In this document: positions 3,525 to 51,480 of the stretch, piece by piece | Layout: each line of letters opens with the position of its first letter | Numbering within the stretch: position 1 is the first letter of the stretch | NCBI GenBank assembly: GCA_045634545.1 | Contig: JAZRAL010000023.1 | Location: forward strand, 1,161 to 65,160 | Length of the DNA stretch: 64,000 bases | Source: Alphaproteobacteria bacterium | Lineage (GTDB): Bacteria > Pseudomonadota > Alphaproteobacteria > RF32 > CAG-239 | Direction: 5' to 3' | Translations under genes and position numbers: made by a program | The notes under the pieces: generated by a model | Seen by the model: the letters and a program-made list of their open reading frames with translations, nothing else | Told to the model about the DNA's origin: nothing | The model's database searches: none

Positions 3525-4592
3525 ATGTCACGTGCAGAAGATATTTTTGAGAAGCTTATTTATTTTGGCGAAGATGCGATTGATGAGTTTATATTAAATA
3601 GGCAAACAGAAGAGCTTTTTATGGACTTTAAGCAAGCGGTTTCTGATGGTAAAAATATGCGAGCACTTCATCAAAATGATAGAAGAAATTTAGCAAAAGC
3701 TATTTCAGCATTTGGTAATAGCGAAGGCGGAGTTTTGGTTTGGGGTGTTGAATGTGCAAGAGATGTTGAGCTTGGTGATGTTGCTCAAGCAAAAGTTAAG
3801 GTAAAGAATGTTCATAGATTTTTAAGTTGGCTCGAGGGAGCGATATCTGGTTGTACTATTCCATCTCATAATAAAGTTAGAAATCACATTATATGCGCTG
3901 ATAAGAATGGAGATGGAATTTTAGCAACATATATTCCAAAATCTGATATTGCACCACTAATGACAACAGCTGGTAGCCAGATTTATATAAGATCTGGTTC
4001 AAATAACGTGCCAGCCCCCTATTCTGTTATTGCAGGCATGTTTGGTAAACGTCCGCAACCAAATATTGATATGGTGATTAATAACAAAATGATTGAGGTA
4101 GCTAAAGAAAACGAGGAAGATATCTTTAGACCAATTAAAAAATCTAAGAAAAAAGAAAATGTTGTTAAAGTTAGATTTTCACTTCTTGCAGAAAATAATT
4201 CTAATGCAATTGCAAAAGAAGTATTTTTATCTTGTAATACATTAAATGTGGGCGGAGATAAAAATAAGGTTAATTTTTATTATGATGCTCAGTTAGAAAA
4301 TCTAGCATCAGAACATAACTCAATTAATTTAATTACTCCAATTGAGATGAGAGTTCCTCCTAGAGCATTGTTTAGTTGCGCAAAGGCGGAAATTAGATTT
4401 TATGATGATATAACCGAAGACTTTTTAATGGAAGGCGTGATAGGAGCTGAAGGAAGTATTCCTAAAAGTTTTAGAATTTATGTTTCAAAAAATGATTTAA
4501 GGTCGTTTGTTGCGCAGTGTTTAAGAAAGAATGCTGATTTAGAAGTGTTAACAAACGAGTTCTTTTCTTGTTATCTAAAAAGAGAAATTTAA
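3525..4592 (+). CDS. AlbA_2 (Schlafen-like) domain protein with unassigned C-terminal half
   Basis: 'TEELFMDFKQ...LAKAISAFGNSEGGVLVWGV' follows the AlbA_2/divergent-AAA motif (E.lEfK ... isAfaNteGG.lliGv). The C-terminal 180 aa or so are unassigned. Confidence 0.6.
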   Translation: MSRAEDIFEKLIYFGEDAIDEFILNRQTEELFMDFKQAVSDGKNMRALHQNDRRNLAKAISAFGNSEGGVLVWGVECARDVELGDVAQAKVKVKNVHRFLSWLEGAISGCTIPSHNKVRNHIICADKNGDGILATYIPKSDIAPLMTTAGSQIYIRSGSNNVPAPYSVIAGMFGKRPQPNIDMVINNKMIEVAKENEEDIFRPIKKSKKKENVVKVRFSLLAENNSNAIAKEVFLSCNTLNVGGDKNKVNFYYDAQLENLASEHNSINLITPIEMRVPPRALFSCAKAEIRFYDDITEDFLMEGVIGAEGSIPKSFRIYVSKNDLRSFVAQCLRKNADLEVLTNEFFSCYLKREI

Positions 4593-5675: not shown

Positions 5676-7058
5676 TCAATTTATAGCTTTCATCTTTTTA
5701 TAAATCATGCGATATTCTTGTTTTATGTCTTTTTCTTTTCGTTTATAAACATTGATGTAATAGCCAACTATTACAACAATTGCGCCACCTAGCCAAGCAA
5801 GAGGACCTGCGTAATATATACCAGCATATCCCATATGACTTGCTAAAATAATAGCAGCGTATGAACGTATAATTAATTCTACAATACCTGATATTAATGG
5901 ATAGATTGCTTTTCCCATGCTTTGGAGCGCATTTCTAAAGATGAAAATTGAACCTAAGAAGAAGTAGAACATTATGCTAATTGATAGATATGATGTGCCA
6001 ACATTGACAACAAAAGGATCAGGATTTTCAAGAAAAGTTCCAATAAGTTTTTTGCCCAAAACAAATACTATAATACTTAAAATTATACTTATAAGGAATG
6101 ATGTTGTTATGGCTTTTCTTATTCCTTCTCTTATTCGCCCTATTTTTCCGGCGCCATAATTTTGAGCAACATATGTTGCAACTGCTATTCCTAGTGCAAG
6201 TAATGGCTGTGTTGCAAGTTGTTCTATACGTAAAGCGATTGTAAATCCTACGATTATTTTTTCACCAAAAGAATTGCATACAGCTTGAATTATCATAATG
6301 CTAAATGAAAGTATTGAAAATTGTAATGACATTGGAATTGCAATATTTAGATGCTCTTTCATGAATGTTGAATTGTATTTCCAATCATTTTTGGTAATGC
6401 GTAATACTGGATAATATTTTCGTATATAAAAGATACAAACTATAACAGAAATTGTAATTGCTATAACTGTTCCAAGAGCAGAACCAACAACCCCTAGTTT
6501 AAAGTATTGTATAAAGATATAATTAAAAGTAATATTTAGTGTTGTTGAAAAAATAAGAAAATAAAGAGGTGTTCTGCTATCTCCTAGAGCTCTTATAAAA
6601 CCATATAATAAGTTTGAAAAAATTATCAAAACTAAACCTAATCCTAAAATTAAAATAAAATTGTAAGAATCTTCAAATATTGATGCGGGTGTGTTTAGTA
6701 TGTGCAATAATGGTTTTAATATTACAAGTAGCAATAGTGTTAAAAAGAGGCTTAAGAAAAAACTTGCTCTAATTGAGTGAGTTACTGAACTTCTTACACC
6801 ATTAAAATCTCCTGCGCCAAAACGCTGTGCTGTGATTGCGGTTAATCCTCCTGTAAAGCTAAAAGCAATGATTAAAAATGTAAAAAATATTGGGGCTGAT
6901 GCACCAACGGCTGCTAGAGCATTTTCTCCAAGGAGGCGCCCTACTATAAATATGTCAGCTAATTGATATAATTGCTGAAAAATATTTCCAATTAATATTG
7001 GTAGTGAGAATAGTAGAATTAATCTTAAGGGATGCCCCTTTGTCATATCTTGTATCAT
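5676..7058 (-). CDS. MATE family efflux transporter
   Basis: 12-TM-type protein. The N-terminus 'PLRLILLFSLPILIGNIFQQLYQLADIFIVGRLLGENALAAVG' is typical of MATE/NorM. Confidence 0.85.
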   Translation of the reverse strand: MIQDMTKGHPLRLILLFSLPILIGNIFQQLYQLADIFIVGRLLGENALAAVGASAPIFFTFLIIAFSFTGGLTAITAQRFGAGDFNGVRSSVTHSIRASFFLSLFLTLLLLVILKPLLHILNTPASIFEDSYNFILILGLGLVLIIFSNLLYGFIRALGDSRTPLYFLIFSTTLNITFNYIFIQYFKLGVVGSALGTVIAITISVIVCIFYIRKYYPVLRITKNDWKYNSTFMKEHLNIAIPMSLQFSILSFSIMIIQAVCNSFGEKIIVGFTIALRIEQLATQPLLALGIAVATYVAQNYGAGKIGRIREGIRKAITTSFLISIILSIIVFVLGKKLIGTFLENPDPFVVNVGTSYLSISIMFYFFLGSIFIFRNALQSMGKAIYPLISGIVELIIRSYAAIILASHMGYAGIYYAGPLAWLGGAIVVIVGYYINVYKRKEKDIKQEYRMIYKKMKAIN

Positions 7059-7265: not shown

Positions 7266-7342
7266 GGCGGAGTAGCTCAGTTGGTTAGAGCAGAGGAATC
7301 ATAATCCTTGTGTCGGGGGTTCGAATCCCTCCTTCGCTACCA
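7266..7342 (+). tRNA. tRNA-Met (anticodon CAT; elongator Met or lysidine-modified Ile2 cannot be told apart by eye)
   Basis: GGCGGAGTAGCTCAGTTGGTTAGAGC..., anticodon stem GAGGA/TCCTT, loop ATCATAA, T-loop GGGGGTTCGAATCCCTC, ACCA end. Confidence 0.9.
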
Positions 7343-7376: not shown

Positions 7377-7446
7377 TTGCTTTTTATTTTTTTTATGATA
7401 GATGTTTGCTGATTGAAAATTATTGTTTTATTTAAATATTATAATT

Positions 7447-8013
7447 ATGGCGTTAAAAAACTATAACAAAGAATGTGAACGAGCGGTTCTTTCTTACAAT
7501 AGTTTATGGAGGAATTTAAAAGCAATCTTTTTTGCTCATAGTTTTTCCTATCCTGTTGTTTATACAGATGGGTTTGTAAGTGAAGATAAAAAGGATAGAA
7601 ATGGTAGAACACCTTTAGGTATTGTTGTAAAGGGGGTTATTTTAAGAATTGATGCTCCAGATGAAAAAATGACACTTTCTGATGCCTTTGATTTGATGTT
7701 TGAAGATGTTTTTGCTGGATTTAATGCTTATCTTCCACCTTTTGAGGTGTTGCTATATGTAAGAAACCATATTAAAACCATTAATAGACTTCTAAAGGAG
7801 CTAGGAGGTACTGAATTTTTTGGTGATTGGTATGTAAGTTGTAATGAATATACAGAAGATACACCTAAAATTGGTGGTTTTGAAAATAAAAGAAATCTAT
7901 CTAATTTGAGAGCTTATGCTGTTCATATGAATTTACCTAGTTATGTTGGTAATTCATATAGTTTAGTCGGTGACAAGAACTTTATTCGTATTGTATATTG
8001 TCATCGTGGTTAA
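7447..8013 (+). CDS. hypothetical protein, paralog A (DUF1566-like C-terminal pattern)
   Basis: Shares 'YPVVYTDGF.S', 'P.GIVV.G.I', 'LP.F..L..........IN.L.KELGG.EF.G.WY.S' and a terminal 'FIR' with the next gene. Confidence 0.6.
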   Translation: MALKNYNKECERAVLSYNSLWRNLKAIFFAHSFSYPVVYTDGFVSEDKKDRNGRTPLGIVVKGVILRIDAPDEKMTLSDAFDLMFEDVFAGFNAYLPPFEVLLYVRNHIKTINRLLKELGGTEFFGDWYVSCNEYTEDTPKIGGFENKRNLSNLRAYAVHMNLPSYVGNSYSLVGDKNFIRIVYCHRG

Positions 8014-8052: not shown

Positions 8053-8126
8053 ATTGCTTTTTTTATTTTAGTTTGTATAGTGCTTAAGTTTTTTAGATTA
8101 TTGTGTGTATAATTAATGTAAATTTT

Positions 8127-8687
8127 ATGAGTAAAAACTTAAAATTAAAAAATGACGAAGTTAATCCTGTTGTGTTATTTATGTACAATGCGATTTTAGA
8201 TTTTTGGTTTAGGCTTGTTGAAAAATGTTACTGTTATCCGGTTGTTTATACTGATGGTTTTATTAGCAGATTAATTAAAGATAGCAAGGAGCGTGTTCCT
8301 TTTGGAATTGTTGTTAATGGTGAAATCATTATTCTTGAAGAGCCTGATAGTAAACTTACAGCCCAACAAGCAGAAGACTATGTTGAAAAGCGCTTTTTTG
8401 CAGGAAAAGATGCAACTCTTCCCTCTTTTGGCACTTTGAGTGTTATTAAAAAGAACATTCACAAAATTAATAAGCTAATGAAAGAATTGGGTGGAAAAGA
8501 GTTTAAAGGTGGATGGTATCGTAGTTCAAGTAAGCTTGAGCGTGGTTATTCGCTAAAAAAGCCTAGTCCGAATTTGCTCGTTGGCAAAAATATTCTAATG
8601 CTCCATATGAATAGTGATTATGGAATGCACGTTCCTTTTTGTGAAGATGATGATTTAACGTTTATCAGAGCTTCGTTTGTTTTATGA
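8127..8687 (+). CDS. hypothetical protein, paralog B (DUF1566-like C-terminal pattern)
   Basis: Tandem paralog of 7447..8013. 'ATLPSFGTLSVIKKNIHKINKLMKELGGKEFKGGWYRSSSK...TFIRASF' resembles the W.LP..eL...gG...yWSS...vRcV layout. Confidence 0.6.
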   Translation: MSKNLKLKNDEVNPVVLFMYNAILDFWFRLVEKCYCYPVVYTDGFISRLIKDSKERVPFGIVVNGEIIILEEPDSKLTAQQAEDYVEKRFFAGKDATLPSFGTLSVIKKNIHKINKLMKELGGKEFKGGWYRSSSKLERGYSLKKPSPNLLVGKNILMLHMNSDYGMHVPFCEDDDLTFIRASFVL

Positions 8688-8696
8688 GTTTTGGTA

Positions 8697-8746
8697 TAAA
8701 AAAAAGCCCCCAACTTATAGCATAAACTATAAATTGGGGGGATTTT
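8697..8746. terminator. bidirectional terminator between convergent genes
   Basis: Long hairpin CCCCCAA(C)TTATAG ... CTATAA(A)TTGGGGG with flanking A and T runs. Confidence 0.7.
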
Positions 8747-8973
8747 TAATATTTTAATTTATATTCTTTAAGACATGTTGCCATATCAAGCGGAGTTTTT
8801 ATGGTATCAATGCAGGTTATTGGTGGTTTTATGGGTTCTTTATAAATATATTCAGTATGCTTGCAAGCGTTTAATGACATTAGTATTACTAATATCCCTA
8901 TTCCAATCAAAGGTATCTTTTGAAGCTTCTTCATAGAGTTGTTTTTTTTGCTTTTCAAGTATGATTTTTTCAT
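8746..8973 (-). CDS. putative o-spanin (Rz1-like outer-membrane lipoprotein), overlapped architecture
   Basis: '...MKKLQKIPLIGIGILVILMSLNAC' is a signal peptide plus lipobox Cys. The mature part is about 39 aa, Pro-containing, with 2 more Cys. It starts inside the i-spanin gene in another frame and ends beyond it. An alternative start is at 8934. Confidence 0.55.
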   Translation of the reverse strand: MKKSYLKSKKNNSMKKLQKIPLIGIGILVILMSLNACKHTEYIYKEPIKPPITCIDTIKTPLDMATCLKEYKLKY

Positions 8974-9124
8974 TATATATATCCTTTATTTTTTGTGATA
9001 GATAGTTCAAGTTTTGTTGCTGAGATTTTGTTTGCTGATTTAAGGTGTTAATTTGTTTTTTTTGAATATAACAAATTAAGACTATGCCTAATAGCAATAG
9101 TAATAAAAATGTATTTAATTTCAT
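8852..9124 (-). CDS. putative i-spanin (Rz-like)
   Basis: N-terminal TM (LLLLLLGIVLICYI), a Q/K-rich coiled coil, and a C-terminal 'FDWNRDISNTNVIKRL' like the Rz 'W....P..V..L' end. An AAGGAA SD precedes the start. Confidence 0.55.
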   Translation of the reverse strand: MKLNTFLLLLLLGIVLICYIQKKQINTLNQQTKSQQQNLNYLSQKIKDIYNEKIILEKQKKQLYEEASKDTFDWNRDISNTNVIKRLQAY

Positions 9125-9152
9125 TTTTGTTCCTTTAAAATTGTGAAGAGCC

Positions 9153-9467
9153 CTATTCGGGCTCTTTGTTTTTGAGATTGAAAATAAATTTTAGTGGGTC
9201 TTTTTGTGCGGTTTTTAATATTTCATCAAATATCATATATAAACGCACAGCAAATAACCCACAAACTCCAGATATTCCATATTTTACAGGTTGAGGTATA
9301 TCTATATATTCAGCTAAAAGGCCGGCCAACATACTAACAATAAAAGTTATTAATATGTCTCTTATACTCTGTTTTATAGATATAAAAGGTTTGATTAAAA
9401 TGGTTATCAAACCTATAAATATTCCCCAAAGACTATAATCTGATATTATGTTTTTTATTTTATCCAT
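9153..9467 (-). CDS. putative class I (3-TM) phage holin
   Basis: 104 aa, three hydrophobic helices and a charged C-terminal tail (KDPLKFIFNLKNKEPE). SD AGGAGC; its start is 9 nt after the fibre-gene stop. Confidence 0.55.
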   Translation of the reverse strand: MDKIKNIISDYSLWGIFIGLITILIKPFISIKQSIRDILITFIVSMLAGLLAEYIDIPQPVKYGISGVCGLFAVRLYMIFDEILKTAQKDPLKFIFNLKNKEPE

Positions 9468-9475
9468 TTTAGCTC

Positions 9476-10348
9476 CTAACACAATATTACTATTGGAATT
9501 TCTATTGTTGATACAGACGGTATTTGTTTTAAATATAAACGAACAAACCCATCAAAGCTTTCAGATGTTGGTGCAATATTTCCAGAAGTTGCATCATTTA
9601 AATTTAATATAACTGATGGAGAATGTGTTGATTTGGCCTCGAGTATTGGTATGTCTAATGAATATGGATAATCAGAATAGCTATTATCTTCTTTTATTAA
9701 AGATGTTTCAAGCAAGATTGGGCCAAATTTTTGACAAGTTATATCATCTATTTTCTCCTTAGTGTAATAATTATTATCAAGATAATTTGCCACTCCTTTT
9801 GAGGTTATTAATTGATTGTTTGTAATAGAAACGGTATCAGTTGTTAGATTTAATAGTTCCTCATAAATAGAGGTTATGGTTTTTGCAAGTGTTGGAACTT
9901 TTTTGATTATGTCATAGTCTTTTTCTAATTCTAAAATAAGTTCACGTATTTGTTCTGGTGATACGTTTGAATTATGAGTGATTTTTATGGCTCTTTCAGA
10001 AATTTCTTTTAGCATTTGTAAAGACATTACGATTTTATCTAAAGAATTTTCATAATCAATTGCTGGAAATTTTTCACCCTCTATAAAAGTTGTTAGTTGA
10101 TTTAATGGTACATTTCTTACAATTGTGATAATTGTTTGGGATTTTGGAGGTATTGTGAATACAACTTCTTTTCCCGTTGTTTCTGATTTATTAGATATTG
10201 TATAGTCGATATTTTCTGTTAAAGGTATATCGCTATTATTTAAGTATACAGCTATATCTTCGTTAAAAAAGTAAAATGGAACAACAAATGATGAAGCTAT
10301 TCCATCGGCAATATATACAACTTTTGAAGTTTCTTTTTGTATAGTCAT
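9476..10348 (-). CDS. phage tail-fibre-like protein (T7 gp17 N-terminal domain type)
   Basis: 'VVYIADGIASSFVVPFYFFNEDIAVYL...IDYTIS...TIITIVRNVPLNQLTTFIEGEKFPAIDYENSLDKIVMSLQMLKE' parallels T7 gp17 'LTYQLDGSNRDFNIPFEYLARKFVVVTL...TDYRF...[41 protein letters not shown]'. Start at MTIQKE (10348) with a GGAGAA SD. Confidence 0.6.
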   Translation of the reverse strand: MTIQKETSKVVYIADGIASSFVVPFYFFNEDIAVYLNNSDIPLTENIDYTISNKSETTGKEVVFTIPPKSQTIITIVRNVPLNQLTTFIEGEKFPAIDYENSLDKIVMSLQMLKEISERAIKITHNSNVSPEQIRELILELEKDYDIIKKVPTLAKTITSIYEELLNLTTDTVSITNNQLITSKGVANYLDNNYYTKEKIDDITCQKFGPILLETSLIKEDNSYSDYPYSLDIPILEAKSTHSPSVILNLNDATSGNIAPTSESFDGFVRLYLKQIPSVSTIEIPIVILC

Positions 10349-10370
10349 TGTTTTCTCCTTATAATAAATA

Positions 10371-10397
10371 CAAAAAAACCGCAAAAAATGCGGTTTC
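10371..10397 (-). terminator. intrinsic terminator 2 in the leader of the fibre/lysis genes
   Basis: On the minus strand, AAACCGCA ttttt TGCGGTTT followed by T7. Confidence 0.65.
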
Positions 10398-10418
10398 TTA
10401 AATGTTAAAAAATTAATA

Positions 10419-10447
10419 TAAAAAAAGACTGGAAACCCAGTCTTTTG
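10419..10447 (-). terminator. intrinsic terminator 1 downstream of the 747-aa gene, in the leader of the fibre/lysis genes
   Basis: On the minus strand, AGACTGG gttt CCAGTCT followed by T7. Confidence 0.65.
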
Positions 10448-10475
10448 AATATGCAATAATGCTATTCTATTATTT

Positions 10476-10504
10476 TTTATATAAAAATATGTCACAAAAG
10501 TCAA
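10476..10504 (-). promoter_or_regulatory. putative sigma70 promoter upstream of two tandem terminators
   Basis: On the minus strand, TTGACT (10504-10499), 17-nt spacer, TATAAA (10481-10476). Confidence 0.45.
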
Positions 10505-10524
10505 TAGTTTTGGCTGTTTCTATT

Positions 10525-12768
10525 TTATCTTGTGTTATCTTTTTTGATTTTTTGAGGCGGATTATTGTAACTATCAACAAAAGCTTTACGAGTTTTGTAT
10601 GATAAGACAATTCCATTATGGCTTAATTTATTTTCTTTACCATTTATTTCCCAGATAGTATTATCTGAAAAAGTTATTATTGTTTTATTGTTTTTTGTTT
10701 CAAAATTTATTACAATAGTTTTATTTTCTGCAACATTTAGGTCATCACTTTTTAGTTTACATGAATTGTCAGTCTTTATTAAATGTGCTTCTGATGTTTT
10801 TATTATCTCGTTTGGTGATACATTAATTCTTCTACCATTTTCTATGTAAGAGATGATATTAAATTCTTTATCCAATATTATTTTAGAGTTTGGAGTTACA
10901 AAATAGTTTTTATCGCTTCCATCCATAAAGAGCTTTGCATTATCTGAAAAAGTTAATTTAGATTTTTTGAAATTGATAACTATGCCATGAGGTAATTTAA
11001 TAGAATTTATTTTTGTTCCTTCTAAGCTTATGCTCATATTGTTTGGATATTCTTCTGTATATTTTCCTATTGGAGAATATGCTTTTTTTTCGGTTTTTGT
11101 ATTTCCATTTGGTTCTATGATATTAATTATTTTCTTTTCTTCAAAATCAATTTCTACTATTTTGCCATCTTTGTGTTTAGCTAAAAATGTACCTTTATCT
11201 GTTCTTACAATTTGGGGTTTTAAGCTTTCTATTCTATCATTTAATTCTATTGCATCATCAACCATTTGAGGTAGTATATCTAACATTTGAGACGCTAGAT
11301 TATCACTTAAATAGTTATGACTTAATTCATTTCTTAAATATTTATATTGTTCCCAACGTTCGTTTTCTTTTTGGGTAATTATTTTTTGTTTAACAAGTTT
11401 ATTCCAACCTTGAGTTGGGGGACATTTTTCTCCAGAAAATAAATAATATTCTCCTATTTTATGCTCTAATATTTGAAATGTTTCTATGTATTTTTTTCGT
11501 TCCATATATAAAACTATGCGTTTTATGAAATCATTAATGTTTTCGCTTTGTATATTGTCAATTACTTCAACATTATCAAATAATTTATTTATAGAATTTA
11601 GCAGTGCGTTTTTCTTTTTTTCTCGATTTGGATATGATGTTTCTATGTAGATAGTAGTATCTTTGTTTTGTTTTCTGAATTCTTTAATTCTTTGAATAAA
11701 TTTATTATTACTTTCGTTAGAGCCTCTTATCAATAAAGTTGGATAGATGCCAGAAACTAAATCTTTAAAATTATCTGCTGTTTTTACGTATTTTGAAATA
11801 CGTTCTACAAAAGTGCCACTACATAAGCGTTGATATGATTCAAGATATCTGTTTCGTATTGATTTATTTTGATCATCTTGACCATTTATAAAGCGTCCAT
11901 ATCCATCTAAAGTTTCAAATTGGTGATGTAATAAATGTCTTATATTAAGAAAATCTTGTAACTGATGTGCACTTGGGATTAAATCTTGGCTTTCAGCTTT
12001 ACTTAAGTAGTTTGTTGGATGTTTTTTTATTAATAATGCTTTTAAGATATTATCTGTTTCTTCTGCTAAATTAGAAAGAGTTGATAATAACACATTTTCA
12101 TAAGGAGACATTATCTCCATTGTTAAACCTTCTGCGTTTGCTTGTTCAAATTTTGCTTTTTCTATATATCTGATATCTTCGTTAAAATATGCAGATATAC
12201 TTAAGATGCTTGATATATTTTTTATAAATTTTTCATCTTCAAAGGCATCTTGAATTGTAATATCGCTAAATGTAGAACCTATATATTTTAGTGAATATTT
12301 TCCATCAATGACAAACGTTATATCTTTTAGTTTCTTGTCTTTTTTATATGCAATTACATAACGTTCAATATTATGAGGAAGCGCATTTATGTGAGCATAT
12401 ACTCCATAATTAGCTGGAGTTGATTGCATAGGAGGGTATTTATTATTTTCAGGAAGAGTATTTGTTATACTTACAAATGATAAGTTTTCTGCATTATCAT
12501 CTAAATCTTTGCTTGCTATAAAATTTTCAAAATTATTTATTTCATTAATATTTGTAGTACCTAATTCCCAAGGCATAGCTCCATCTTGTGGGTCTTTAAT
12601 CATTTCTAGATGTCTACTTGCTAGGTATTTTGAAGAGTTCATTTGAGTTATTTGCTCAAAATTTCTAGATAAAAATATATAATCTCGGTATATGGCAAAC
12701 AACTGAGCTTTTTGTTTTGCACTTAGAGATGATGCATAAATAGATGCTATATTTGTATTTTTTTTCAT
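10525..12768 (-). CDS. 747-aa protein with two HEPN-type Rx4H motifs (tandem HI0074/NTase_sub_bind-like HEPN domains), unassigned N- and C-terminal regions
   Basis: R277HLLHH282 (nt 11923-11940) and R479NELSH484 (nt 11317-11334). The second lies in 'YIETFQILEHKIGEYYLFSGE...RWEQYKYLRNELSHNYLSDNLA', which follows the HI0074-type HEPN consensus layout. AAAGGA SD and its own promoter. Confidence 0.5.
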   Translation of the reverse strand: MKKNTNIASIYASSLSAKQKAQLFAIYRDYIFLSRNFEQITQMNSSKYLASRHLEMIKDPQDGAMPWELGTTNINEINNFENFIASKDLDDNAENLSFVSITNTLPENNKYPPMQSTPANYGVYAHINALPHNIERYVIAYKKDKKLKDITFVIDGKYSLKYIGSTFSDITIQDAFEDEKFIKNISSILSISAYFNEDIRYIEKAKFEQANAEGLTMEIMSPYENVLLSTLSNLAEETDNILKALLIKKHPTNYLSKAESQDLIPSAHQLQDFLNIRHLLHHQFETLDGYGRFINGQDDQNKSIRNRYLESYQRLCSGTFVERISKYVKTADNFKDLVSGIYPTLLIRGSNESNNKFIQRIKEFRKQNKDTTIYIETSYPNREKKKNALLNSINKLFDNVEVIDNIQSENINDFIKRIVLYMERKKYIETFQILEHKIGEYYLFSGEKCPPTQGWNKLVKQKIITQKENERWEQYKYLRNELSHNYLSDNLASQMLDILPQMVDDAIELNDRIESLKPQIVRTDKGTFLAKHKDGKIVEIDFEEKKIINIIEPNGNTKTEKKAYSPIGKYTEEYPNNMSISLEGTKINSIKLPHGIVINFKKSKLTFSDNAKLFMDGSDKNYFVTPNSKIILDKEFNIISYIENGRRINVSPNEIIKTSEAHLIKTDNSCKLKSDDLNVAENKTIVINFETKNNKTIITFSDNTIWEINGKENKLSHNGIVLSYKTRKAFVDSYNNPPQKIKKDNTR

Positions 12769-12795
12769 ATTTATTCCTTTTTTTTATGAACGTTT

Positions 12796-12824
12796 ATAAT
12801 ATGTTACTATATATCTTTTGTCAA
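12796..12824 (-). promoter_or_regulatory. putative sigma70 promoter of the 747-aa gene
   Basis: On the minus strand, TTGACA (12824-12819), 17-nt spacer, TATTAT (12801-12796). Confidence 0.45.
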
Positions 12825-12935
12825 TATTTTTGTTTAATTGTTTTTTGGTTTGAATGTGAAAAAATTAAAAAAATCTTTACGTTTTGTAACTATTATGATA
12901 GTATATTCTTAGTTTTAACTTAAGGTGTGATTAAT

Positions 12936-13511
12936 ATGTTTAAGTTTTTGGTTTGTTTTTTGGTTTTTATTTATTCTTATAATGCTAGAGCATTTGATGA
13001 TATTTATGCTTTAATTAATGCAGAAAATACTAGCGTATTTACTGAAAGACTTGCAGCAGGGTTTGATATTGATGATCAAGATTTAGAAGGAAATACTCCT
13101 TTAATGACTGCAGCTGCTCTTAATAAACCCAAGTTTGTTGCTTATTTATTGGAAATGGGGGCAAAAGTTGATTTAAGAAATTACTCTGGAATGTCTGCTC
13201 TACATAAGGCAGCTCTTGCTGGTAACAATGAGATTATTGATATATTAATAGATCATGGTGCAGAGGTCAATTTACCTGATTTAGATGGTTTTACCCCTTT
13301 GATGCTTGCTACAAGTACGGAAAAACGTTTTACTGTTGAATTATTGGTTCGCCGAGGGGCTTTAATTTCTTTTAAAAATAGTAAAGGTTTGAGTGCTATC
13401 GATATAGCTAGAAAAAAACGTTATGCTAAAATTCTTATTTTCTTAGAAAAAGAAGTGAAAAAAGTAAGAAAAGAGGAAAAAAAGCCTAATTATAGTTGGG
13501 ATATTGATTAA
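12936..13511 (+). CDS. secreted ankyrin-repeat protein
   Basis: Signal peptide MFKFLVCFLVFIYSYNARA. Three or four ANK repeats ('GNTPLMTAAALNKPKFVAYLLEMGAKVD', 'GMSALHKAALAGNNEIIDILIDHGAEVN', 'GFTPLMLA'). Confidence 0.85.
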   Translation: MFKFLVCFLVFIYSYNARAFDDIYALINAENTSVFTERLAAGFDIDDQDLEGNTPLMTAAALNKPKFVAYLLEMGAKVDLRNYSGMSALHKAALAGNNEIIDILIDHGAEVNLPDLDGFTPLMLATSTEKRFTVELLVRRGALISFKNSKGLSAIDIARKKRYAKILIFLEKEVKKVRKEEKKPNYSWDID

Positions 13512-46570: not shown

Positions 46571-47809
46571 TTATTTTGCTTTTATAAATACCATTGGATC
46601 CATTGGGATTCCATCATATAATATTTCGTAGTGCAAATGAGGTCCTGTAGAGCGCCCTGTTGAGCCTACTTCACCGATAGCTTGCCCTTGAGATACTGTA
46701 TCTCCTTTTTTTACATAGTTTGCATTCATGTGAGCATATTTTGTTTTGAAACCATTTCCATGGTCTATTTCTATTACTTTTCCATATCCTGTTGCCCAAC
46801 CTGATTTGGTAACTACGCCATCTGCCATTGTTTTTACTTTGTTTCCTTTATTAGATGCTAAATCAACACCTTTATGTGTTGCGCTTTTAGAATTGAATGG
46901 ATCTTTTCTTTTACCAAATGGTGATGATAGCCAATATGACCAAACGGGCTTTCCTAGTGGAACTTTTTTCATAGCTTCATTATAATAAACATTATTATCA
47001 ATACTCTCGAAAGTTTTTGATACTTGATTTGATAATATTAGGTTATTGTTTATAGCTAAGCTATCTGGAACATATACTCCACCTCTGTTGTCTTTTTTTG
47101 AATTGGCTAATGGATTGAAATATTTACCTCTTTTTTTTAGTTCTTTGTTTACAGATGTAATTGATGTTTTTATTTTATCAATTTCCTTTCCAGATATTTC
47201 TTCTACTTTTTTTAATATGTCTAACTCAAAGGCTTGCAAAGAAACGATAACATCTTCTAGATATTTTACTTTTTCTTCAAGTAATTTCTTTTCTTCTACG
47301 GCGACATCTCTATGAAGTAGAGCGTCACGAAGAGCACTTTTTTCTCCAACTTCATTTTCATCTATCCATTCTTCTTGGGCAGATATTTTTTTGATTTTTT
47401 CTTCAATTACTTGAGCCTTTTTTAGATATTCCTCAATATTTGAGCTTGTTTTATCTTCTTTGTTTCCTATATTTTCAACAAGTCCTGAGATGTTATTATG
47501 AACTGTAACAAAGTCGCTCATCAAATCTACATAAGCATCTCTTGTTTCGTCTAATTTTTTTTCTTGATATGAGATTATTTTACCTGAAACACTATACATT
47601 TGATAAGAATATGCGCTCCATAAACCAGCTATAACCATACCAATAAAAACAAGCCATTGAATTTTTGATGAGATTTTAAAAACCTTCATCCGTCCATTTG
47701 AACGGATAATAAACTCTTTTTCGGAAAATAGCTTGTTACTACTTTCCGTTGGCTGGTAATAGTTAGTTATAGGACGCCTTTTAGGGCGTTTTTTATATCT
47801 TTTTATCAA
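46571..47809 (-). CDS. M23 family metallopeptidase (murein endopeptidase) with N-terminal TM and coiled coil
   Basis: 'HKGVDLASNKGNKVKTMADGVV...IEIDHGNGFKTKYAHMN...GSTGRSTGPHLHYEI'. Confidence 0.9.
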   Translation of the reverse strand: MIKRYKKRPKRRPITNYYQPTESSNKLFSEKEFIIRSNGRMKVFKISSKIQWLVFIGMVIAGLWSAYSYQMYSVSGKIISYQEKKLDETRDAYVDLMSDFVTVHNNISGLVENIGNKEDKTSSNIEEYLKKAQVIEEKIKKISAQEEWIDENEVGEKSALRDALLHRDVAVEEKKLLEEKVKYLEDVIVSLQAFELDILKKVEEISGKEIDKIKTSITSVNKELKKRGKYFNPLANSKKDNRGGVYVPDSLAINNNLILSNQVSKTFESIDNNVYYNEAMKKVPLGKPVWSYWLSSPFGKRKDPFNSKSATHKGVDLASNKGNKVKTMADGVVTKSGWATGYGKVIEIDHGNGFKTKYAHMNANYVKKGDTVSQGQAIGEVGSTGRSTGPHLHYEILYDGIPMDPMVFIKAK

Positions 47810-50838: not shown

Positions 50839-50886
50839 CATATCCTTGTTTAACTATTTACAAAAAAAACATTTTGAAAGGATATG
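50839..50886 (+). repeat. 9-bp inverted repeat bracketing the recombinase SD and first ATG
   Basis: CATATCCTT (50839-50847) and AAGGATATG (50878-50886), with a 30-nt spacer. Confidence 0.6.
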
Positions 50887-50889
50887 GTT

Positions 50890-51480
50890 ATGATTTACGG
50901 ATATATTCGTATTAGTACAGGTATGCAGACTTTAGAAAATCAACGATTTGAAATAAATCAATTTGCAGCAAAAAACAATCTTAAAATTGATGTTTGGATA
51001 GAAGAAAAAGTTTCTGGAACTATAAATGTCAATAAAAGAAAACTTGGAATTTTATTAAAAAGGCTCAAAAAAGGTGATATTTTAATTACGACTGAACTAT
51101 CAAGATTGGGAAGAAATCTTATGCAAGTTATGTCTATTTTACAGCATTGTCTTGATATTGATTGTCAAGTTTGGACACTAAAAGAAAAATATAAATTAGG
51201 AGCCGACTTACAAAGTAAAGTTTTAGCTTTTGCTTTTGGATTATCAGCAGAAATAGAAAGACAACTTATTTCTCAGCGAACTAAAGAAACTTTTGCTCGT
51301 CTTAAGGCTGAAGGAAGACACCTTGGGCGTCCTTTTGGTTTTTCTTACTCTCGTTTAAGGGGAAAAGAATTTGAAATAAAAAAATTGCTAAATAAAAATA
51401 TACCAAAATCTCAAATTGCTAAAATGCTTGGGGTTGGAAGAACAACTCTTTATCGCTTTATTAAGCAAAATATTACCTAG
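50890..51480 (+). CDS. serine recombinase (resolvase/invertase family, Mpi-like DNA invertase)
   Basis: 'MIYGYIRISTGMQTLENQ' (catalytic Ser), 'ELSRLGRN', 'SAEIERQLISQRTKE', C-terminal HTH 'IAKMLGVGRTTLYRFI'. Confidence 0.88.
   Translation: MIYGYIRISTGMQTLENQRFEINQFAAKNNLKIDVWIEEKVSGTINVNKRKLGILLKRLKKGDILITTELSRLGRNLMQVMSILQHCLDIDCQVWTLKEKYKLGADLQSKVLAFAFGLSAEIERQLISQRTKETFARLKAEGRHLGRPFGFSYSRLRGKEFEIKKLLNKNIPKSQIAKMLGVGRTTLYRFIKQNIT

Follow-up and report, generated by a model that had tools for sequence, protein, structure and literature searches.

We propose that a block of phage-derived genes in a 64,000-nt stretch of an uncultured alphaproteobacterial genome (contig JAZRAL010000023.1, GTDB lineage RF32; CAG-239; G+C about 30 %; hereafter the window) contains a domesticated lysis and release operon. 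With somewhat better than even confidence, we suggest that this operon is controlled by antitermination, is served by cell-wall hydrolases acting in trans, and releases a tail-fibre-like protein together with antibacterial hydrolases. The block comprises genes for a 747-aa tandem-HEPN protein, the fibre-like protein, a holin and two overlapped spanins (Rz and Rz1). All five open reading frames (ORFs) are present and intact on the minus strand, as in an initial annotation made from the sequence, which had also correctly placed the block between tRNA-Met/MATE on one side and an ankyrin-protein gene (ank) and htpG on the other (Table 1). That annotation had proposed, as a working hypothesis, a domesticated release or delivery module; lysis-dependent release is still the best reading, but the 747-aa protein can hardly be its cargo. 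Absent from the earlier account was the control region in front of the fibre gene, a promoter resembling lambda pR′ followed by tandem terminators.

A late-type promoter and tandem terminators precede the fibre gene

The block appears to consist of two transcription units, the 747-aa gene alone and a fibre–holin–Rz/Rz1 operon. The operon promoter has a −35 hexamer (TTGACT, 10499–10504), a −10 hexamer (TATAAA, 10476–10481) and a −10-like element with a trailing AG (TAGAAT+AG, 10462–10469), and just after the −35 its spacer carries a conserved pentamer, YGWCR (TGACA in the window, 10490–10494). Its geometry is the same as that of lambda pR′ (TTGACT-17-TAAATT-6-AACGAT-GGG), with the −10-like hexamer at about +1 to +6, where a pause element is expected (TATAAA-6 nt-TAGAAT-AG as compared with TAAATT-6 nt-AACGAT-GGG in lambda). 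In lambda this second hexamer is a sigma-dependent pause element, and Q loads on the paused RNA polymerase beside the Q-binding element (PMC9388147, PMC6606751). The pattern occurs once in the window (0 matches expected), and the promoter is kept with fixed spacing in 23 of 23 orthologous loci, even where the 747-aa gene is lacking.

Two intrinsic-terminator hairpins separate this promoter from the fibre gene, whose ribosome-binding site (RBS) lies directly 3′ of the second hairpin, with no space for a further promoter; transcripts of the operon must therefore start upstream of both hairpins. At least two hairpins with T-runs are found in 17 of 24 fibre leaders, as against 7 of 432 control regions upstream of other genes at the same loci, and although the hairpin sequences differ between species, the structure is kept as two or three hairpins with T-runs. 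The pR′ geometry and the tandem terminators before the first gene lead us to infer a default-off operon, which may be switched on by processive antitermination of the Q type.

Table 1. Features of the block and of its surroundings in the window
Feature	Position	Strand	Remarks
MATE	5676–7058		Same flank as tRNA-Met
tRNA-Met	7266–7342		One flank of the block
Operon-ending intrinsic terminator	8707–8740	−	Strong; 15-bp stem and T-run
o-Spanin, Rz1-like lipoprotein	8746–8973	−	Overlaps Rz by 122 nt in another frame
i-Spanin, Rz-like, 90 aa	8852–9124	−	N-terminal transmembrane domain (TMD), coiled coil; orthologues in most loci
Class-I-like holin, 104 aa	9153–9467	−	Three TMDs, charged C-terminus; most conserved gene of the block
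Tail-fibre-like protein, 290 aa	9476–10348	−	First gene of the operon
Tandem intrinsic-terminator hairpins	10373–10399, 10423–10446	−	With T-runs; between late-type promoter and fibre RBS
Late-type promoter of the fibre operon	10462–10504	−	TTGACT, 17 nt, TATAAA, 6 nt, TAGAAT, AG
Tandem HepT-like HEPN protein, 747 aa	10525–12768	−	Predicted separate transcription unit
Sigma-70-type promoter-like site of the 747-aa gene	12796–12824	−	TTGACA-17-TATTAT; a consensus match (11 of 12 positions)
Secreted ankyrin protein (ank)	12927–13511	+	Opposite flank, with htpG
Amidase_2 (AmiD/AmpD-type)	20997–21773		
M23 peptidase	46571–47809		Adjoins bactofilin gene

The block is conserved and under purifying selection

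The window's htpG is closest to that of metagenome-assembled genomes (MAGs) of uncultured gut and rumen Alphaproteobacteria, the nearest being SUUK01 SIG44 (94 %). When the block proteins were used to search htpG loci from 80 species-representative genomes, about 25 species (htpG 76–94 % identical to that of the window) had full-length ORFs for the 747-aa protein, fibre, holin and Rz/Rz1, in this order, upstream of ank–htpG, and the block was absent at loci with htpG at most 69 % identical. In RUG10829 it lies away from htpG, whole and with ank, on another contig. Identity to the window proteins is 67–96 % for the holin, 34–87 % for the fibre, 31–78 % for the 747-aa protein and 36–77 % for Rz.

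Between the window and locus L035 the dN/dS ratio (ω) is 0.046 for the holin, 0.15 for the fibre, 0.135 for the 747-aa gene, 0.25 for Rz and 0.22 for Rz1, compared with 0.052 for htpG. Seven further species pairs gave similar values (holin 0–0.08; fibre 0.08–0.15 in most pairs; 747-aa gene 0.07–0.18). Synteny and intactness across about 25 species-level genomes, together with purifying selection on every gene, show that the block is not frameshifted debris, and the earlier view of an orphan, domesticated set of phage derivation is borne out.

In closely related pairs, the holin and htpG have diverged equally at synonymous sites. Between L005 and L007, dS is 0.51 for the holin and 0.49 for htpG, but 0.9–2.7 for the fibre and 1.4–3.4 for the 747-aa gene, with ω nevertheless about 0.1. 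The segment from the 747-aa gene to the fibre thus behaves as an island of recombination and hypervariability, whereas the lysis backbone around it is conserved; such behaviour is expected of specificity or defence determinants.

The same promoter precedes unlinked hydrolase genes in related genomes

The exact promoter pattern has 32 matches in 596 Gb of genomes, 29 of them in this clade, and no true viral match in IMG/VR; with a relaxed pattern, viral contigs yielded chance matches only, and the matches listed for genome contigs were mostly chance ones in AT-rich genomes. The pattern is thus a practical probe, which retrieves members of the putative regulon almost without false positives. In MAGs that carry the block, unlinked genes are preceded by the same promoter, −10-like element and tandem terminators. 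The hydrolases encoded by some of them have one N-terminal domain in common (MTFSYNFDDDILEHQRL...; about 90 aa), to which at least four different peptidoglycan-hydrolase domains are joined: a VgrG3-like_C domain of the type VI secretion system (T6SS; 8.9e-27), two types of GH108 (3.6e-19 and 3.3e-20) and, by a weak match, a T4-lysozyme/pesticin-like domain. The place is taken in JAZNKG and JAZQTW by a protein of 449–485 aa whose C-terminus is lysozyme/pesticin-like. When the common N-domain served as query in a protein search, only 2 database entries were returned.

Behind each C-terminal type comes a distinct family of small proteins with signal peptides, an arrangement that resembles polymorphic toxin–immunity loci and suggests that the small proteins may confer immunity. 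The CASDOS MAG has at least four further copies of the promoter beside that of the block locus; one of its loci (L106) carries two tandem hydrolase genes, and two copies lie at a contig edge. In the 'Acetobacter sp. 46_36' lineage from the human gut, the operon itself comprises the fibre, the holin, a 150-aa protein, a GH108 hydrolase and small secreted proteins. Other genes behind the same leader encode serum-amyloid-A (SAA)-like proteins (Pfam SAA, 1.8e-12) and a glycine-rich 258-aa protein. Within one genome the promoters have a spacer element in common, which differs between genomes (CCGTCAAG in JAZNKG, CCGTCGGG in JAZQTW), as might be the case if a resident regulator and its sites evolved together.

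These loci bear on the lack of an endolysin that the initial annotation had remarked on. For the window the claim is correct: no muramidase signature was found in any frame over its whole length, and the only wall hydrolases are the Amidase_2 protein and the M23 peptidase already reported. For the system as a whole it does not hold, in that relatives have muramidases under the same promoter and leader, either unlinked or within the operon. The best reading is that the 'missing' endolysin would be supplied in trans. Amidase_2 and M23 were considered for this role and rejected; both lie among housekeeping genes that are syntenic in relatives and have no late-type promoter.

Some further genes were noted at these loci. 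The SAA-like proteins stand behind the promoter–terminator leader in rumen Alphaproteobacteria (L168, 506–895; L203; L231), followed in L203 and L231 by a gene for a small membrane protein. In one subclade a conserved 145–150-aa protein (MELKxFSQEVNEQLF...), for which we obtained no family match, follows Rz1 (L089, L093, L102, L108) or the holin (L088, L125), and orphan small secreted 'immunity-like' proteins (MKWLVLVCF...) are found behind it.

Holin, spanins and fibre-like protein

The lysis genes have the architecture of a holin plus overlapped spanins, as first annotated, though their profile matches are weak. Rz begins 28 bp after the holin gene in the window, and the pair conforms to the spanin plan, an i-spanin with an N-terminal TMD and, overlapped in another frame, a lipoprotein o-spanin; the features of Rz1 are a signal peptide, an LNAC lipobox and, at the C-terminus, the conserved sequence PITCIxxIKTPLDMAxCLxEYK, and its likely start is an internal ATG at 8934. 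The holin is 55–56 % identical to that of two IMG/VR phage contigs, L084 and L085, neither of which has the late-type promoter pattern. As read, the L084 cassette is canonical, with a holin, a Hydrolase_2 endolysin (2.2e-20), a membrane protein and overlapped Rz/Rz1. A different overlapped spanin pair, similar to that of L084, stands behind the same conserved holin at L032 (5164–5521), L033 (7349–7706) and L139 (2183–2546), and is a non-orthologous replacement within the operon. As a separate observation, an in-frame GTG five codons 5′ of the holin ATG (9468–9482, minus strand) would add MLGAK, and orthologues have similar extensions (MRDK-M, M-M). The extension resembles the dual-start holin/antiholin motif of lambda S; the upstream start has no evident RBS.

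The fibre-like protein is made up of a T7 gp17-type N-domain (residues 1–115), a helical region (96–201) and a small beta C-domain (206–289). Recognition of a podovirus tail-fibre N-domain in the initial annotation was well founded: residues 1–115 match PHROG tail and tail-fibre families (phrog_1640, 8.7e-18) and are about 30 % identical by tblastn to the fibres or tailspikes of podoviruses (Pelagibacter HTVC034P, Ralstonia RpY1, BcepC6B gp18, epsilon15 and P-SSP7 gp17). The AlphaFold model (pLDDT 78) matches N-domains of this type with probability 1.0 (7boz, 7ey9, 8vbx, 8ck1, 9efk), and also short 'adaptor'-type fibre proteins in BFVD. All homologues are 250–290 aa long, one carries PF03906, and nearly all invariant columns fall in the N-domain.

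The 747-aa protein is a tandem-HEPN protein with a probably separate role

The 747-aa protein is laid out as an N-domain (residues 1–200), a first HEPN-like helical repeat (about 204–341), a small alpha/beta insert (345–402), a second HEPN repeat (about 411–515) and a beta-rich C-domain (519–720). The two HEPN-type Rx4H motifs that had been noticed in it, R277x4H282 (RHLLHH, nt 11923–11940) and R479x4H484xY (RNELSHNY, nt 11317–11334), prove to be invariant in 44 family members with identity down to 23 %, the full set of invariant residues being Y27, P131, E224, A258, R277, H282, R323, R479 and H484. Pfam HepT-like is matched by 29 of these 44 members (best 1.2e-8) and NTase_sub_bind by 18; the window protein itself scores 19.4 bits against PF01934, for which the cut-off is 23.5, and the family profile finds the HepT (HEPN) toxin 7ae9 in the PDB at 0.0055. 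A Foldseek search of the PDB with the full AlphaFold2 model (pLDDT 74.6) gave only weak beta-sheet matches (CPAP G-box, WD40), which are uninformative on function. The family is closed and restricted to this clade: its 115 representatives all have the same architecture or are fragments, and among 1.84 billion representatives there was no distant relative beyond this architecture, nor was any relative found in viral contigs.

We consider it unlikely that this protein is the cargo of the release module, as had been supposed, because two terminator hairpins stand between its gene and the operon, a promoter-like site precedes the gene itself, the protein lacks a signal peptide, and gene and operon can occur without each other: L016, L020 and L033 retain the operon but not the gene, whereas in L009 the gene is the sole remnant. 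The protein is predicted to be an RNase and is most likely a 'moron' for defence or toxicity, independent of the release machinery and probably transcribed constitutively as a stand-alone unit; its two HepT-type motifs should form one intramolecular RNase site. Its RNELSHNY motif follows the RX4HXY form of the MntA–HepT toxins, as do its HepT-like profile matches, but unlike those toxins it has no adjacent nucleotidyltransferase (MNT) antitoxin; there is no NTase domain beside it, and its neighbours are ank and the fibre operon. With Cas13, a tandem-HEPN RNase, it shares two HEPN units per chain, whereas its large N-terminal, middle and C-terminal domains are unique to this clade-restricted family, which the two invariant predicted catalytic motifs serve to define. 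A role as regulator, suggested by its position at the place of Q in lambda, was provisionally set aside, as the gene is absent beside conserved promoters in L016, L020 and L033 and the protein has no recognizable DNA-binding domain.

Proposed mechanism and competing explanations

We suggest that transcription of fibre–holin–Rz–Rz1 would start at the pR′-type promoter, where RNA polymerase would meet the pause element and then the two terminators, leaving the operon off until a Q-like antiterminator loads at the promoter and polymerase can read through. The inner membrane would be permeabilized by the holin and the wall degraded by a cytoplasmic muramidase, expressed from a different locus that has this promoter and leader too, and the spanins would break the outer membrane; the producing cell would then lyse, releasing a fibre-like trimer and muramidases. 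Considering that the muramidases of sister lineages belong to a polymorphic toxin-like family with immunity-like small secreted partners, the process may serve lysis-dependent release of antibacterial cargo, for which the fibre and the polymorphic hydrolases would be the candidates on grounds of co-regulation.

Several observations weigh against this proposal. No Q-like gene, antiterminator family or other regulator was found in the window, the block or its flanks by Pfam and PHROG scans of the window ORFs, and the upstream neighbour of the fibre operon, where a Q gene normally sits, is the HEPN gene or ank. The window has neither a hydrolase gene under a late promoter nor a second promoter copy, and the closest genome, SUUK01, yielded no second promoter or hydrolase with the patterns used, which included one specific to the window spacer; the latter also found nothing in metagenome contigs. 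The profile matches of the holin (Phage_holin_3_3, 2e-5, below the Pfam cut-off; phrog_6384, 6e-5) and of the spanins (phrog_739, 1.4e-4; phrog_456, 0.05) are weak. The spanins are lost in L013, L015, L017 and L040, and in two higher-GC lineages (L008, 5094–5303; L011, 4661–4960) an alanine-rich small protein with two TMDs, possibly a different holin class, stands in place of the holin; full lysis is thus apparently not universally required. A periplasmic immunity protein would oppose self-lysis by the same hydrolase. Finally, the N-domain of T7-type fibres normally docks on the adaptor or nozzle of a podovirus tail, and it is conserved here though no tail is known, tail genes being found neither in the window nor in the promoter-bearing loci read.

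A wider scheme may also be considered, which we put forward only tentatively. Here a virion-less chromosomal 'late regulon' would have one Q-type antiterminator for the lysis operon, the orphan fibre and the hydrolase toxins with their immunity proteins, the fibre acting as targeting device or carrier for the N-domain that the toxins share.

A quite different, and in our estimation unlikely, explanation is an anti-phage 'Trojan' operon, in which the Q-like antiterminator of an infecting podophage would switch on the late promoter, the extra holin and spanins would bring about premature lysis with the endolysin of that phage, the short fibre, whose tail-docking N-domain is intact but whose C-domain is minimal, would poison the tails of its progeny and the HEPN protein would add abortive infection. 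A leader predicted to be off by default with no local regulator found, a block that itself needs no endolysin, the concentration of nearly all invariant fibre columns in the tail-docking domain, and fibre and HEPN alleles that are hypervariable relative to the clonal frame (the L005/L007 dS values), as is typical of arms-race loci, would all fit such a decoy. It would, however, have no need of the polymorphic hydrolases, immunity-like partners and other cargo driven by the same promoter; the promoter pattern is found in no viral contig, the co-variation of spacers within genomes fits a resident regulator better, and PADLOC gave no match for any block protein.

Slightly less probable again is that the block is an accessory locus of a particle encoded elsewhere (a gene transfer agent, a tailocin or a defective podovirus) and is co-regulated with its head–tail cluster. 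The gene transfer agent RcGTA, whose lysis and fibre genes lie at loci separate from the head–tail cluster, provides a precedent; the loci described here are likewise distributed and co-regulated, and they include a conserved fibre N-domain of the kind that in phages binds the adaptor or nozzle. Yet no capsid, portal, terminase or tail gene was found downstream in the promoter-bearing loci read, a census that is incomplete owing to fragmented MAGs and, for the relaxed pattern in genomes, covers the matches listed. Nor did scanning the window ORFs that reach 100 aa against Pfam and PHROG (for 29–64 kb, the best 25 of 42 PHROG families) reveal a capsid, portal, terminase, tube or sheath gene, which agrees with the earlier statement that the 64 kb hold no virion genes, and the fibre has a length of only 250–290 aa.

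That the block is functionally inert prophage debris, kept by chance or through the HEPN gene alone, is strongly disfavoured and seems to us barely credible: the patchy loss of spanins, holin-type gene or HEPN gene in some lineages and the absence of an endolysin and an integrase would be in keeping with it, but ORFs remain full-length even where amino-acid identity falls to 31–40 %, in eight species pairs ω is far below 1, constraint on the holin equals that on htpG, and the promoter–terminator architecture has been kept despite complete turnover of the hairpin sequences.

Relation to known systems

To our knowledge, no type 10 secretion system (T10SS) with a fibre-headed operon, antitermination control, or polymorphic hydrolase cargo with immunity-like partners has been described. 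Our literature search likewise found no description of a fibre-headed, endolysin-less holin–spanin operon or of a chromosomal pR′-type regulon with polymorphic hydrolases. The closest functional parallels to the release operon that we favour are the T10SS of Serratia (ChiWXYZ), Yersinia entomophaga (YenLC; PMC10847048) and Salmonella (PMC13284979), which are similarly virion-free, kept by the host and built on a phage-derived holin and spanins; the release of colicins or of Stx would be a comparable mode of action. Such lysis cassettes release cytoplasmic proteins, and lysis of a producing subpopulation is a known mode (PMC10847048, PMC13284979). T10SS cassettes hold their own peptidoglycan hydrolase, whereas the block, with a holin and spanins in place, has none in the cassette; in relatives the hydrolase is unlinked and shares the promoter.

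In its control region the operon resembles the lambdoid late operon pR′–tR′–(stx)–S–R–Rz/Rz1 (PMC9388147, PMC6606751), both in promoter geometry and in having terminators before the first late gene. Like stx, the fibre gene is a non-lysis 'cargo' gene placed after the terminators and ahead of the lysis genes; the holin and overlapped or embedded spanins come next. Unlike the lambdoid operon, the block has no upstream Q gene, no endolysin within the operon and no virion genes downstream; it has two or three terminators within about 100 nt where lambda has one at about +194; and its promoter recurs at several unlinked chromosomal loci, the host being an alphaproteobacterium. Like RcGTA and the R- and F-type tailocins, it may represent domesticated phage genes under host control with lysis genes for release, but no head, tube, sheath or baseplate genes were found, and its fibre is of podovirus type and very short. 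The hydrolases of relatives recall pesticin, colicin M and toxins of the VgrG3 C-domain type in their VgrG3-like_C, pesticin-like and GH108 domains, in the small signal-peptide partner, and in the fusion of a conserved N-domain to variable toxin domains; they differ in that neither a TonB box nor a receptor-binding domain nor a T6SS context was identified, and the window has none of these genes.

Were our proposal correct, phage late-gene control, that is, a pR′-type promoter with antitermination, would have been co-opted for a virus-free, multi-locus host regulon, and T10SS-like release would extend to an endolysin acting in trans and to polymorphic cell-wall toxins. The wider late-regulon scheme, if true, would mean that phage late genes have given rise to a new class of bacteriocin, associated with a fibre and released by lysis. 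In either case the block offers a testable system in common, uncultured Alphaproteobacteria of the human and ruminant gut.

Possible origin of the block

In the temperate podovirus BcepC6B, genes gp15–gp25 encode large internal virion proteins, tail fibres, holins, an endolysin, Rz/Rz1 and an integrase, in that order, and RpY1 is similar. Beside tRNA-Met, the block follows this BcepC6B-type order except that endolysin and integrase are lacking; no att-like repeat (a copy of the tRNA-Met 3′ end) flanks it. We suggest that it may derive from an ancient temperate podovirus that integrated beside tRNA-Met and whose right arm has since been inherited vertically, the ancestral order being internal-protein position, fibre, holin, endolysin (lost), Rz/Rz1 and integrase (lost), and that the host clade would have kept this arm as two functional units.

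Neighbouring genes

Between tRNA-Met and Rz1 lie two tandem paralogous ORFs that had been overlooked (7423–8013 and 8103–8687, both plus strand; 196 and 194 aa, 42 % identical). They are convergent with the operon, have the motif YPVVYTDGF in common, gave no Pfam, PHROG or PADLOC match, and were seen only in L004, L021 and L035; the pair occupies the place where a phage integrase would be. On the other flank, ank accompanies the block in nearly all genomes (for example L120, 2498–3037) and was relocated with it in RUG10829, and the secreted ankyrin-repeat protein may be part of the module.

An Rfam scan of the window found nothing except tRNA. The statement that the 64 kb contain no integrase needs the caveat of a small serine recombinase 38 kb away (50884–51480, plus strand), a resolvase/invertase with Resolvase and HTH_7 domains (PHROG 'DNA invertase', 5e-47), with a MORN-repeat protein encoded after it. 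A Schlafen/AlbA_2 domain protein (3525–4592, plus strand; PHROG 'DNA helicase', 1.6e-9), 76–94 % identical in relatives, is encoded next to RNase H, some 4 kb past the block.

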